Positions 26,109-31,199 of a stretch of 64,000 nt of DNA are shown in pieces. Position 1 is the stretch's first letter, and each line of letters opens with the position of its first letter. The stretch is taken from the NCBI GenBank assembly GCA_038884755.1, contig JAWABJ010000001.1, forward strand, positions 448,001-512,000, read 5' to 3'. Source of the DNA: Candidatus Norongarragalinales archaeon (GTDB lineage: Archaea > Micrarchaeota > Micrarchaeia > Norongarragalinales > Norongarragalinaceae). The notes under the pieces are model-generated. The model saw only the letters and a list, made by a program, of their open reading frames with translations, was not told the origin of the DNA and searched no databases. The position numbers were made by a program, and so were the translations under genes.

Positions 26109-26180
26109 TGGACTCGGCGGGATTTGAACCCGCGGCCTCATCGTTGCGAACGATGCGATCTACCGCTGATCTACGAGCCC
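26109..26180 (-). tRNA. tRNA-Ala(CGC), CCA not encoded
   Basis: Reverse complement GGGCTCG..CATCG TT CGC AA CGATG..GGTTCAAATCC..CGAGTCC A; G3:U70 Ala determinant. Confidence 0.95.
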
Positions 26181-27483: not shown

Positions 27484-27554
27484 GGGTTCTTAAGTGGTTG
27501 CGGGAATAAAAAAGAATCGAGAACAGGACTAAAAAAAACGATTATCGGAATATG

Positions 27555-27605
27555 CTTTGAACATAAATTGACTTTTGCACTTAAAATGGGCTTACTGCAC
27601 ACAAA
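27555..27605 (+). repeat. Left-end subterminal repeats (3 copies of TG(C/A)AC core)
   Basis: TTTGAACATAAA, TTTGCACTTAAA, CTGCACACAAA with cores at 27558, 27576, 27596. Confidence 0.7.
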
Positions 27606-27658
27606 TACGACAAACGACGAAAGAATCCAGTGGAAGGCCTGAAAATCTCTCAAAAGTC

Positions 27659-27907
27659 TTATTTTTGGCCTCTTCCGAATAGGTAGCCAATAAGTGAGGC
27701 AATAACCCATCCGTTTGTTTCCATTGTCAACTTTTCTTGCCAGTTGAGTATAAGCACGGTTGCCAACACTGCAAACACGATTATAGTGGTCATTTTGGCA
27801 TTCTGCTTAGATAGGTCGTACCAGCGGTCAGCCACCATTCGAGCAAACTTATTCTTGTCAAGCTCACGTAAAACGTCAGTAAGACGTTCATCATCAGTTT
27901 TTGCCAT
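27659..27907 (-). CDS. Small two-TM membrane protein (cargo)
   Basis: 82 aa; two hydrophobic helices ending IASLIGYLFG. Confidence 0.6.
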   Translation of the reverse strand: MAKTDDERLTDVLRELDKNKFARMVADRWYDLSKQNAKMTTIIVFAVLATVLILNWQEKLTMETNGWVIASLIGYLFGRGQK

Positions 27908-27915
27908 AAACTTAC

Positions 27916-28215
27916 CTACCCTATTTCTTTTCTCAGCTTTTCAACCTGATTTTCAAAGAGATATGTGGTTTTATCAGTTCTATCGTAGCTACTTGCAGTT
28001 GTAACGGTTCCTTCATCATCTAAGTCAAAAAAGAGCGTGTAATGTTTATCCCCCTTGTTCTCATGGAGAAAATCCAAAAGATTTTCCCTTTTTATTAGGA
28101 AGAACACGTCTTTCCAGACGCTTTTCCGTTTTGGATGCAAGATTTCTTTTGGAATCGGGATGGTTGCATGAATCATAACCCAATCGGTATTTAGGTCTTC
28201 AACTTCCTTTCTCAA
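27916..28215 (-). CDS. Hypothetical protein (cargo); start uncertain, possibly a frameshifted continuation of the upstream gene
   Basis: Open frame to stop at 27916; TTG 28215 overlaps the end of the upstream ORF. Confidence 0.45.
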   Translation of the reverse strand: MRKEVEDLNTDWVMIHATIPIPKEILHPKRKSVWKDVFFLIKRENLLDFLHENKGDKHYTLFFDLDDEGTVTTASSYDRTDKTTYLFENQVEKLRKEIG

Positions 28216-28669
28216 AATCAGAATCAAGCGTAGTTTGTTCTTTTCCTTTCTTGATTTTTTCCAATACGTTTTCAGAGCGTTTTTCCCTAACAAAATCGAT
28301 TAACTTGGGTTTTACTATCCCAATAGAAACATCTGTGTCTTTTACTTTCTTAGCTAATTCTGAATAGGTCGTCATATGCGGTTGTAAGAGTTGTTTGATT
28401 TTAGTCCAACTTTCTTCTTGAAGGCACGCGATAGTGTCTTCTTTTATTTTCATGCTTTCAATTCGCTTGTCTTCAGGCTTTTTTCCTATTATTTCATATT
28501 CAATCCAGCTTTTTTTCTTAAAGCCGTTATTCCAAAAATGTTCCCAGCTTACCGGGTAAATGCGCCGTAACTCTCCAGCGTCAGTAATTCCCGCTATGCA
28601 AACGAGATGTTTGTATTTGCTGCTGGTTACGGGATAGGCTTTAGCGAGAACCAATAGCTTTTCGTTCAT
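28199..28669 (-). CDS. DUF488-associated protein (OB-fold-like), apparently C-terminally short
   Basis: LAKAYP..S.KY..LVCIAGI...RIYP..W.E..DKRIES..S.GIVKP pattern recalled from DUF488 neighbours; ATGA overlap with the DUF488 gene. Confidence 0.6.
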   Translation of the reverse strand: MNEKLLVLAKAYPVTSSKYKHLVCIAGITDAGELRRIYPVSWEHFWNNGFKKKSWIEYEIIGKKPEDKRIESMKIKEDTIACLQEESWTKIKQLLQPHMTTYSELAKKVKDTDVSIGIVKPKLIDFVREKRSENVLEKIKKGKEQTTLDSDFEKGS

Positions 28670-29433
28670 AAATCGACAACCTTGAAACCGTTTTCAACAA
28701 GCTTTTCTTTGATAATGCTTCGGTGGCATTTTTCCACGTCTTTTTCGAAGCACATTATCGCAGTTTTTCTTATGTTGGATACCGCACCTAAATCTTGGAT
28801 TTCCGCTATGACGTCTTCATCATTAATGTGTTTCCGATATTCTCCAAAAAAATGTGTGTAATCCCAATCCTCGTGCAGTTTATCCCGAAGGGCTTTTGGA
28901 GAACCGAGAGAGGGAAAGTGTTTATAGCGTATTCCCGCTTGTTTCAAGCGAGCTTCTAAAATTCCTTTTGAAAAACCGTTTTTCCTGCTGAAAGCAAGTT
29001 GCCTAACGTCCGTTAATTGCTTTATGCCGTTTTCTTTTAGTTTTTCGATAAACTGGTCGATGTTTAGCCCTTCATAGCCTATCGTGAAAATCGTCTTGTT
29101 TTCTAAAGTCCAGATTATCGAGTTGTCCACTTTAAACCGCTTCAAACCAATTTCGTGTTCTAACTGCCTTACCCACTTGTTGTTAGGCAGTTTTTCAGGA
29201 AAGTTTAACTTTTCCTTGATTTCAGACCAAGTTAGGCCGTCAGGATGTCTTTCTAATAGTTGCTGGATTGACGTTTTGAACTCAGAAAACAAGGGCTTAA
29301 CGCCCCTTGTTCTTGGCTTATCCCAGTAAGGCGAATGACACTTTGGGCATACTCTTGGTGTTGCTTCTTTTCGGTTTATCCATTCATGACCGCAACGCTC
29401 GCACTTATAGCCTTCGAGCGTAATTTTACCCAT
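28666..29433 (-). CDS. Zn-ribbon + wHTH-like + DUF488 fusion protein
   Basis: CERCGHEW..CPKCHSPYW; LLERHPDGLTWSEIKEKL; IFTIGYEG, DVR..SRK.GFS, LG.P, MCFE....CHR. Confidence 0.82.
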   Translation of the reverse strand: MGKITLEGYKCERCGHEWINRKEATPRVCPKCHSPYWDKPRTRGVKPLFSEFKTSIQQLLERHPDGLTWSEIKEKLNFPEKLPNNKWVRQLEHEIGLKRFKVDNSIIWTLENKTIFTIGYEGLNIDQFIEKLKENGIKQLTDVRQLAFSRKNGFSKGILEARLKQAGIRYKHFPSLGSPKALRDKLHEDWDYTHFFGEYRKHINDEDVIAEIQDLGAVSNIRKTAIMCFEKDVEKCHRSIIKEKLVENGFKVVDL

Positions 29434-29441
29434 AATAATTG

Positions 29442-29505
29442 ATTAATAGTAACACTTAAATACCTTTACGGGCATATGTTACTAATAATAACATATTAGT
29501 AGTAA
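29442..29505. promoter_or_regulatory. Divergent promoter region with three TTACTA(N)TAAT boxes
   Basis: ATTAATAGTAACA (29442-29454, reverse), TGTTACTAATAAT (29477-29489), TATTAGTAGTAA (29494-29505, reverse). Confidence 0.6.
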
Positions 29506-29509
29506 AGAG

Positions 29510-30580
29510 TTGAGACAGACGAAAGATGATGAAATTCTCAGGATATTACAAGGTGGGCCAGGTTCAACTGATGCCCTGGTTAGTCTCGCAACTCGCCAGC
29601 TTCAAGCCAAGAAATGGCAGGCGTATAACGAATCCCAAACAGAGGAAAAGCTCTGGTTTCTGGACTTACTGGCTGATTTGACGCAGCAAATCGAGTGGCA
29701 ACCGCGAGGTGGAAAAGGCCGTCCGCAGGCGAATTTACCGGAAATGGTTTTTTCCTGTGTTTCTAAAGTCTACGAAGGCCTATCTTCTCGCAGAGCTACC
29801 TCCGACTTAGAATTAGCTCACCGCCGAGGGTATTTGTCGAAAGTCCCGCATTTTAACACGGTTCTGAAGTTCTTGAACGAGCCGGAACTTACTCCAGTTT
29901 TCACTAAGCTCATTGAGATTTCAGCTTTACCGCTAAAGCCTTTTGAAAGCACGTTTGCTATTGATGCTTCAGGGCTTTCGAGCGCCTTTTACTCTCGCTG
30001 GCTCGATTACCGCTTTAACGATGATAGGCGTTTTCATGATTGGATTAAAGTGCACTTGATGTGTGGAGTCAAAACCCACATCGTCACGGCAGTTACAGTT
30101 ACTGACGGCCATACTCACGACTCACCACAATTTCCAACGTTGTTGGGGATTACGAAAAAGCGGTTTAATGTGGATGCGGTTTGCGCAGACTTGGGTTATT
30201 CGTCTCGAAAGAATGTTCAAGCTGCTTGGGACAGCGGAATCGCCCCGTTAATTCCTTTCAAATCGAGTGCTACGGGAAAGAGTTTGGGTTCGAAAGCGTG
30301 GACTAAAATGTACCACTGGTTCAAAATGAATCAAGAAGACTTTTACAAACGCTACCACGCCAGGAGCAACGTTGAAAGCACGTTTAGTGCATTGAAGCGA
30401 AAGTTTGGAACTAAGCTAATGACTAAGAAAGAAGTAGCCCAGACTAATGAGGCCTTGTGCAAAGTCTTGTGTCATAACCTAACGGTTTTGACTTTTGAAT
30501 CCCATTGGAATAACTTCAAAATCGACTTTGAAAAGGCACAGGACGAATCGTTGCACACAAAATCGGATGATTGCACATAA
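29510..30580 (+). CDS. DDE transposase (IS4/IS5-like, DDE_Tnp_1)
   Basis: GRP N-terminal motif; catalytic AIDASG, ADLGY, Y..RSNVESTFS.LKRKFG; intact 356-aa frame. Confidence 0.9.
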   Translation: MRQTKDDEILRILQGGPGSTDALVSLATRQLQAKKWQAYNESQTEEKLWFLDLLADLTQQIEWQPRGGKGRPQANLPEMVFSCVSKVYEGLSSRRATSDLELAHRRGYLSKVPHFNTVLKFLNEPELTPVFTKLIEISALPLKPFESTFAIDASGLSSAFYSRWLDYRFNDDRRFHDWIKVHLMCGVKTHIVTAVTVTDGHTHDSPQFPTLLGITKKRFNVDAVCADLGYSSRKNVQAAWDSGIAPLIPFKSSATGKSLGSKAWTKMYHWFKMNQEDFYKRYHARSNVESTFSALKRKFGTKLMTKKEVAQTNEALCKVLCHNLTVLTFESHWNNFKIDFEKAQDESLHTKSDDCT

Positions 30581-30625
30581 TTTCAATTAAATCTATTCTT
30601 AGAGGGGAATTTGTGTGCAAAGTTA
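30551..30625 (+). repeat. Right-end subterminal repeats and terminal inverted repeat
   Basis: TTGCACACAA (30551) and TTGCACATAA (30571, contains the transposase stop) 20 bp apart; inverted copy TTTGTGTGCAAAG at 30610-30622. Confidence 0.72.
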
Positions 30626-30640
30626 ATCGGAATAGAAAGC

Positions 30641-30669
30641 TTTTTATATAGTCATGATGTCATCATGAC
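30641..30669 (+). promoter_or_regulatory. TATA box immediately followed by a perfect palindrome (putative operator)
   Basis: TTTTTATATA 30641-30650, then GTCATGATG-T-CATCATGAC 30651-30669. Confidence 0.6.
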
Positions 30670-30761: not shown

Positions 30762-31199
30762 ATGTCGTCTGAGGAAGACTTTCGAGTGGTTTCGGAAGAA
30801 TTCAACGAAATGAAGAGAAAGTATTCAGATCCGATTTTCCTGGGAAGCATGCTTTCGAAAGTAGCGGAAGAAAAGACTTCGTTCAACCTCGTGCTCAAGG
30901 AGATTAACGCCAAGCTCGACAAAATCATCGAACTGGAAGAAAGGATATCCATAATAGAACAGAAAATGCAGTCAGCGCAACCCTCTATGCAGGAAGGAAA
31001 GAGCTTCATCTCGGAAGTGGACGGGGAAATATTGAAGTTCGTAGGAAAGAAGGGCGTTTGCACTGCCGAGGAAGTGCAGAGGAAGTTCAACTACAAGGGC
31101 GCGAACGGGGCAAGCGCCAGGTTGAACAACTTGTTCAAAGCAGGGCTTTTGGACAAGAAACAGGCAGGAAAGAAAGTGGTTTTCTTTCCCAAGGCATAG
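30762..31199 (+). CDS. Coiled-coil + C-terminal winged-HTH protein
   Basis: LKEINAKLDKIIELEERIS coil; VCTAEEVQRKFNYKG.NGASARLN.L...G.L.K.QAG wHTH. Confidence 0.7.
   Translation: MSSEEDFRVVSEEFNEMKRKYSDPIFLGSMLSKVAEEKTSFNLVLKEINAKLDKIIELEERISIIEQKMQSAQPSMQEGKSFISEVDGEILKFVGKKGVCTAEEVQRKFNYKGANGASARLNNLFKAGLLDKKQAGKKVVFFPKA

Follow-up and report, generated by a model that had tools for sequence, protein, structure and literature searches.

The locus and its features

The DNA analysed here (the window) is a 64,000-nucleotide stretch of a Candidatus Norongarragalinales archaeon genome (GCA_038884755.1, contig JAWABJ010000001.1, positions 448,001 to 512,000). It contains a transposon of 3072 bp (27553-30624) that carries passenger genes, belongs to an IS903-like family of insertion sequences (IS), and lies directly ahead of a host promoter. 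The main result is that elements of this family have a fixed landing position upstream of TATA boxes; this was absent from an earlier annotation of the window made from the sequence alone (the first-pass annotation). The genome (G000; genomes and loci are cited by G and L numbers) is 0.93 Mb, carries TFB and FtsZ, and holds one full copy of the element and one distant 3' remnant. The features of the locus are listed below (ORF, open reading frame; BRE, B recognition element).

27544-27552, forward: target-site duplication, left copy (9 bp); G001 and G004, where the site is empty, have it once
27553-27605, forward: left end, terminus and three same-sense 10-bp units, likely transposase-binding sites
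27659-27907, reverse: cargo ORF 4, 82 aa, C-terminal half hydrophobic, no family
27916-28293, reverse: cargo ORF 3, 125 aa (99 aa in the public gene call), orphan
28199-28669, reverse: cargo ORF 2, truncated, N-terminal part of a PDC-M19B-like protein (profile 3-158 of 269)
28666-29433, reverse: cargo ORF 1, zinc ribbon, weak winged helix and DUF488 (PDC-M19A-like)
29425-29506, no strand: divergent promoter region with a 30-nt inverted repeat, a likely operator
29510-30580, forward: IS903-like DDE transposase, 356 aa, D152/D227/E289, without an N-terminal zinc finger
30552-30624, forward: right end, two same-sense units that overlap the tail of the transposase gene, including its stop, followed by an inverted terminal unit
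30626-30634, forward: target-site duplication, right copy (9 bp), with an extra A at 30625
30635-30648, forward: host promoter elements that form the landing mark, a BRE-like hexamer at 30635-30640 and a TATA box at 30641-30648
30651-30669, no strand: host palindrome, a likely operator, conserved ahead of the helix-turn-helix (HTH)-like gene across the order
30762-31199, forward: host HTH-like gene, whose promoter is a recurrent target

The identical duplication was determined as 9 bp, ATCGGAATA, at 27544-27552 and 30626-30634. The first-pass annotation had the flanking copies in the right places and took them as 8 bp (ATCGGAAT, found at 27544-27551 and 30626-30633). One surplus A at 30625 allows the duplication to be read as 9 exact bases plus one, or as 10 bases with one mismatch; the related element L211 has the identical one-base offset. 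The inverted ends lay where they had been reported, and the element was found to run two bases past the quoted motifs, the left end beginning TGCTTTG at 27553 and the right end, which stops at 30624, reading AACTTTG inward. This terminus variant was also found in G002.

The left end has three same-sense 10-bp units starting at 27558, 27576 and 27596, and at the right end two more units of this orientation start at 30552 and 30572, the second of which contains the TAA stop of the transposase (30578-30580), as had been noticed. The reported spacing of 18-20 bp applied to the left units and the right internal pair, while the terminal inverted right unit lay 43 bp beyond the unit at 30572. The GC content was 41% within the element and 51% in the flanks. 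The three-unit left-end pattern gave 41 matches in 31 of the 401 genomes of the class, and its reversed control gave none; together with the empty site in two congeners, this showed that the ends were not due to chance.

A tRNA gene at 26109-26180 (reverse strand), the sole match in an Rfam scan of the window, lies 1.4 kb left of the element and is not the insertion site. The remnant in G000 (L042, C1:298350-298665) is the 3' part of a distant family member whose right end has different units.

Empty sites and repeated insertion at one promoter

Three congeners of G000 (G001, G002, and G004) hold the left flanking gene. In G001 and G004 the flanks were joined with a single target copy, which is the empty site that the first-pass annotation had predicted for sister genomes. 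In G002 this base was taken by a 96-bp element that has the same ends and is flanked by a 9-mer duplication of its own; the two copies were identical to each other and differed from the 9-mer of the window element at 4 of 9 positions. A single ancestral insertion for G000 and G002 was considered and is unlikely, since the 9-mers matched within and differed between the genomes and G001 was empty. The insertion site is directly ahead of the BRE-like hexamer, followed by the TATA box, the palindrome and the conserved HTH-like gene.

Among the best 30 loci of the HTH-like gene, drawn from 63 of the 68 genomes of the order, 28 were readable, and the promoter was occupied in two (G000 and G002) and empty in 26. 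Elements lay at the same base of this promoter in G000, G002, G037, G039, and G092 and in two metagenome contigs, every one of them flanked by its own 9-mer. The site was empty, and bore the 9-mer of G037, in two congeners of that genome. The hits at this shared base are independent insertions.

The flanks of the congeners were 76-82% identical to those of the window element. In sequencing run X1 (contigs, depth 2-6), which may be the source sample, the left junction was bridged, and no empty-site or circle joint was found; runs X2 and X3 gave no match to the site. The claim that the element is intact and possibly recent was supported only in part: the partner of the DUF488 gene is truncated, and recency was unproven because of the single full copy, the divergence of the congener flanks and the lack of an empty-site joint in X1.

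Downstream of the TATA box of the HTH-like gene, 29 of 30 loci from the order had a palindrome of the type TCATGA-N5-TCATGA (window 30651-30669; L351-L380); it is likely an autoregulatory operator of this gene. To the immediate left of its 96-bp element, G002 has an additional AT-rich stretch of about 0.85 kb (L015:2060-2900) that contains an ORF, is bordered on both sides by a short repeat and was missing from G000, G001, and G004.

Position of the elements relative to TATA boxes

The offset between element and TATA box was drawn from the first six loci; the loci used to test it were retrieved by their transposase or end pattern, blind to the flanks. Of the 48 unique non-tandem archaeal flanks, 24 had a strict TATA hexamer starting 15-17 bp outward of the element end, as did 13 of 28 close metagenome flanks, while other 3-bp windows averaged 0.2 and 0.07, respectively. 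About half of the flanks were positive, as one TATA-facing side per element would give. Almost no strict TATA was found at offsets 18-59, and none of the eight bacterial or distant flanks had one at 15-17 bp.

The set of 47 complete archaeal-clade elements included the window element, five 96-bp mini elements and six metagenome elements. The strict test was passed by 34 of the 47 (23 left, 12 right, one of these on both sides) and the relaxed test by 44. The same empty sites shifted by 8-45 bp gave 4.8% (strict) and 15.8% (relaxed), and random genome positions gave 0.35% and 3.2%. The landing point was six bases upstream of the TATA box in either orientation. The idea that the TATA box is a part of the element was rejected, as the box is found beyond the duplication, may face either end, and exists at empty sites too.

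The profile of the TATA-facing flanks showed a purine/A run at offsets 9-12, followed by the TATA box (15-22) and, at 34-41, by an AT-rich stretch (0.80 at offsets 34-40, vs. 0.58). AA was found in the BRE position in 19 of 26 cases, against 8.6% of genomic TATA hexamers. This profile outside the elements is that of an archaeal promoter. The base composition of the duplicated 9-mers was near even, with no overall bias. In the available part of one source (PMC6640164), the Pyrococcus promoter is laid out as BRE at -36 to -32, TATA at -30 to -23 and the melted region at -11 to -2; by analogy, the 9-bp target would span roughly -45 to -37 relative to the start site, adjoining the TFB-bound BRE.

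Scanning of 33 downstream ORFs revealed, among others, thermosome (three), TFB, L3 (two), S19e, S12, Hsp20, SepF, GyrB, and large surface-type proteins. The promoter and the gene were left whole after insertion. The promoter of large surface-type proteins was a second hot spot (L108, L113, L284/L311, L287/L307, L289, and L036), often with a TGTTAC..GTAACA-like palindrome. Two elements, L035 and L146, had landed at promoters that lead into the host's own TFB gene.

Distribution and transposase of the family

Transposase matches were found in 66 of the 401 genomes of the class, 50 Acidobacteriota loci, 78 metagenome loci and one viral contig. Screening by units yielded 108 distinct ends and paired 22 elements through their duplications, and a screen by terminus and exact 9-mer paired 65 of 142 more distant loci. 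The family terminus consensus was GGCTTTG, the duplications were exact 9-mers, and element size varied between 96 bp and 13 kb. Tandem arrays in which exactly one 9-mer separates neighbouring elements were common. The end motif, the duplications and the variable cargo proposed for relatives were all found, the duplication being 9 bp. The end units differed between two archaeal clades, and the TATA target was common to both. Identical transposases were found in L177 and L178 (G375 and G115), at different promoters in genomes of two families, which suggests a recent transfer or a binning error.

The window transposase matched PF01609 (DDE_Tnp_1; E 2.5e-22), and D152, D227, and E289 were invariant in all 50 archaeal-clade relatives. 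The best NCBIfam model was the IS5 model NF033579, with 127 bits, below the cut-off of 140. Foldseek with the predicted structure (predicted local distance difference test, pLDDT, 88.6) gave weak DDE matches only (ISCth4, E 3e-5; Tn5, template modelling score 0.46-0.48), and no relative was found by sequence in the PDB. The nearest annotated plasmid elements were the IS5-like ISEcl3, ISRhba5, and ISPko1, which we take to be of the IS903 group (26-27% identity over 80-88% of the length); like the present family, they start with GGCTTTG. The transposase is of the DDE class, as the first-pass annotation had it, and the nearest named group is IS5/IS903. In many relatives a SWIM or zinc-ribbon N-terminus was added.

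Cargo genes

The transposase takes up 1071 of the 3072 bp, about one third as stated before. The passengers had been called a divergent four-gene operon; four divergent ORFs were confirmed, of which ORF 2 is truncated and ORFs 3 and 4 yielded no family assignment when one was sought. The DUF488 gene matched PDC-M19A (E 8e-41) and the adjacent gene was M19B-like (E 3e-24). The latter ends at 156 aa, compared with 254-262 aa in L162 and L146, relatives in which full PDC-M19 pairs were present. The possibility that ORF 3 is the frameshifted missing half of ORF 2 was rejected, as ORF 3 had no match to that half. The literature search on DUF488 function returned nothing useful.

In the cargo scan, which covered the 145 longest of 220 cargo ORFs (PADLOC threshold E≤1e-10), 30 of 40 loci had a PADLOC match, of the restriction-modification type in 28 of those 30. 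The transposase was the only gene common to 41 archaeal-clade elements, and any other gene family occurred in at most 13 of them. A dedicated target-selector gene was ruled out, since no accessory gene was shared across the 41. Elements with passenger genes are termed transporter IS or unit transposons, and the genes found between the element ends place the family among unit transposons. The first-pass view of an archaeal transporter-type family with multi-site ends was right about the passengers and the ends, and too narrow about the hosts, as the family was also found in Blastocatellia.

96-bp mini elements

In the five 96-bp minis, the first 23 bp resembled left ends (best identity 0.83-0.91, vs. 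0.39-0.48 to right ends) and the last 43 bp resembled right ends (0.67-0.84, vs. 0.33-0.42 to left ends). Two of the five retained coding sequence of the transposase tail. Fusing left unit 2 of the window element to its right unit 1, with everything in between deleted, gave a computed 96 bp. On these sequence grounds, the minis are deletion scars between same-sense units of the left and right ends. Recombination or slippage between such units would delete the interior and leave a 96-bp scar, like a solo long terminal repeat (LTR).

Related elements in bacteria

The Blastocatellia elements had the same end plan and other fixed neighbours. A GATAC-type repeat was found directly at the duplication, upstream of a type III polyketide synthase-like gene (10 loci) or a subtilase gene (2 loci). 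Another fixed motif, presumably an NrdR box, was found upstream of ribonucleotide reductase at three Blastocatellia loci. A third fixed motif, which we take to be dif-like, was found at five loci and, as a variant, at three more, with one exact copy in each of five genomes. About a dozen bacterial loci, mostly inside arrays, had no resolved target. In bacterial arrays (L048, L052, L062, L236, L257, and L260), the 9-mer was often expanded to short tandem repeats with a period of 7-8 bp beside the element end.

A quick tree of 92 transposases was constructed, from which nine rows were dropped for stops or short length. In this tree, 18 of the 19 GATAC rows formed one clade (support 99), the three NrdR-type rows formed one clade (100), the dif-like rows fell into two clades, and all TATA rows were outside the bacterial group. 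Target class thus appears to follow the transposase tree, with a contribution from host relatedness. The GATAC label of L085 was a guess that the tree did not support. The segment after D152 was conserved within target classes and different between them.

A tentative generalization, to which we give slightly less than an even chance, is that a widespread branch of IS903-like transposons consists of one-protein "site hunters" that dock on host protein-DNA complexes and have changed partners between clades: in archaea the partner would be promoter-bound TBP/TFB, and in Blastocatellia it would be XerCD (at dif), NrdR (at the promoter of the reductase) or a repeat-binding protein.

Choice of the target site

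The reading we prefer, with a probability of about 0.63, is that this family of IS903-like cargo transposons inserts six bases upstream of the TATA box through capture at the edge of the promoter-bound TBP-TFB complex. The transposase would bind the 10-bp units as a multimer, and its complex would be captured at the upstream edge of TBP-TFB on the promoter. As the promoter survives the insertion, the site would serve as a safe harbour, and a second element would land at the same base and give tandem arrays. Docking is favoured because clades with different end units and different post-catalytic segments share one target, because the promoter features extend beyond the TATA motif, and because the bacterial targets resemble protein-binding sites. 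It is also favoured by the finding that a host protein, H-NS, steers target choice of IS903 and ISAba13, as given in the accessible part of PMC11335895.

Several points weigh against this reading. The offset was chosen from the first six loci, and the relaxed test was set after the data had been seen. The 47 elements are partly non-independent, owing to sister genomes and shared hot spots, and 64 distinct TATA-facing flanks were left after collapse at 70% identity. Three of the 47 (L172a, L173, and L306) had no TATA on either side even by the relaxed test. No left end was found for the L042 remnant, and no TATA faces its right end at C1:298665. The segment after D152 differs between the two archaeal clades, both of which target TATA, so that a docking motif common to both did not emerge. 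The G000 assembly, which is 93% complete, yielded no TBP, though it is present in all four congeners. Docking and direct readout of BRE-TATA were not separated by the present data. The predicted complex of the transposase with the host TFB core scored 0.01 and weighed neither way.

TBP in all five relatives inspected (G037, G002, G003, G001, and G004) was a single-repeat ORF of about 100-120 aa, with one PF00352 match per genome, located after rpl21e/rpoF-like genes (L344:1465-1770, L347:1450-1764, L345, L346, and L348). Canonical TBP has two repeats, and the single-repeat form may be a homodimeric half-TBP.

Direct readout, in which the transposase itself reads the BRE-TATA sequence or its intrinsic bend through a spare DNA-binding surface, with no host protein, is unlikely but deserves the most attention among the alternatives. 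It agrees with the single gene common to the elements, with the base-precise spacing, and with a target class that tracks the transposase tree and the post-D152 segment. However, one target serves both archaeal clades in spite of their different end units and post-D152 segments; the AT-rich bias at the melted region, 20 bp further, and the well-expressed gene types suggest working promoters and more than a motif; and the bacterial targets have no sequence in common with TATA and all look like protein-binding sites.

That another promoter-proximal factor (an operator-bound repressor, a chromatin protein or RNA polymerase) sets the site is improbable. A palindrome was found just downstream of TATA at many targets, including both hot spots, and repressed promoters might keep a long-lived complex, but the distance of the palindrome varied among genomes while that of TATA was constant, and many targets had no palindrome.

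Loose targeting of AT-rich or open intergenic DNA, with selection sparing genes and promoters, is hardly credible: compact genomes offer little safe space besides promoter-upstream DNA, and IS903-group elements prefer AT-rich, host-protein-bound DNA according to the accessible parts of PMC6382973 and PMC11335895, but a spread of distances would be predicted where a spike was observed at 15-17 with almost nothing at 18-59, and selection would account neither for separate families using one and the same base nor for arrays with exactly one 9-mer between neighbours.

Comparison with known elements

No description of TATA- or promoter-targeted archaeal elements was found in the literature searched, which mostly excluded subscription journals, and the main text of a 2026 survey of archaeal IS (PMC13343696) had no occurrence of TATA, promoter, target, IS903 or passenger. 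The present analysis adds the site that is empty or reused in congeners, a mechanism for the scars and the link between clade and target in bacteria.

The family resembles the IS903 group in its DDE_Tnp_1 transposase, GGCTTTG termini, 9-bp duplication, non-autonomous minis and, probably, host-protein influence on targets; the terminus with 9-bp duplications is listed in Table 2 of PMC6382973. However, the IS903 group (with ISAba12/ISAba13 and MITEAba12) is about 1.04 kb, with one repeat per end, no passengers and a low or regional target preference, whereas the present family is 0.9-13 kb, with three units per end, cargo and a base-precise position beside TATA (34/47). As the size, single repeat and low specificity of IS903 were not found, the element is set apart as a variant and not as an IS903 member.

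The ISAba32 subgroup of the IS1202 family, as described in the accessible portion of 10.1101/2022.12.17.520857, consists of single-gene IS at a fixed distance from the XerCD xrs/dif site. The likeness lies in the fixed distance from a host protein-binding site, and some bacterial relatives here were at dif-like sites; these IS differ in family, in a 5-bp duplication, in one fixed orientation and in having no promoter targeting.

The adjacent DUF488 (M19A) and M19B-like genes resemble the PADLOC candidate defence system PDC-M19; the B gene of the window covers profile positions 3-158 of 269, so the window has no full-length A and B pair.

Tn7/Mu-type elements and casposons have several asymmetric binding units per end, safe-harbour sites, tandem arrays and defence cargo. 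The present family resembles them in the ends, the arrays, the cargo and, probably, the safe-harbour sites, but it has no TnsA/C/D, TniQ or Cas1, and no accessory gene is shared by the 41 elements. Tn7-like elements also use TnsB/TnsC/TniQ machinery and make a 5-bp duplication at one att site, compared with a 9-bp duplication at many promoters here.

Among the prokaryotic strategies found in print, none has one small transposase target the core promoter with base precision. If host TBP/TFB is the landing mark, this would explain how defence genes build up in gene-dense archaeal genomes without gene breakage, with restriction-type genes ferried to safe harbours and solo-LTR-like scars left behind. 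Promoter positions could then be read to the base in uncultured archaea, and the transposase would represent a compact safe-harbour integrase with clade-varying specificity.

The yeast retrotransposon Ty3 is targeted by TFIIIB (TBP and Brf1) and inserts near the start site of genes transcribed by RNA polymerase III. The likeness is a fixed distance from a promoter complex of the TBP/TFIIB family; here the distance to TATA was measured, and dependence on the factors is inferred. The present family differs in being a DNA transposon that lands upstream of the BRE at protein-coding genes. If TBP/TFB is the landing mark, an unrelated element parallels the yeast retrotransposons, and the family would be a prokaryotic counterpart of Ty3 targeting.

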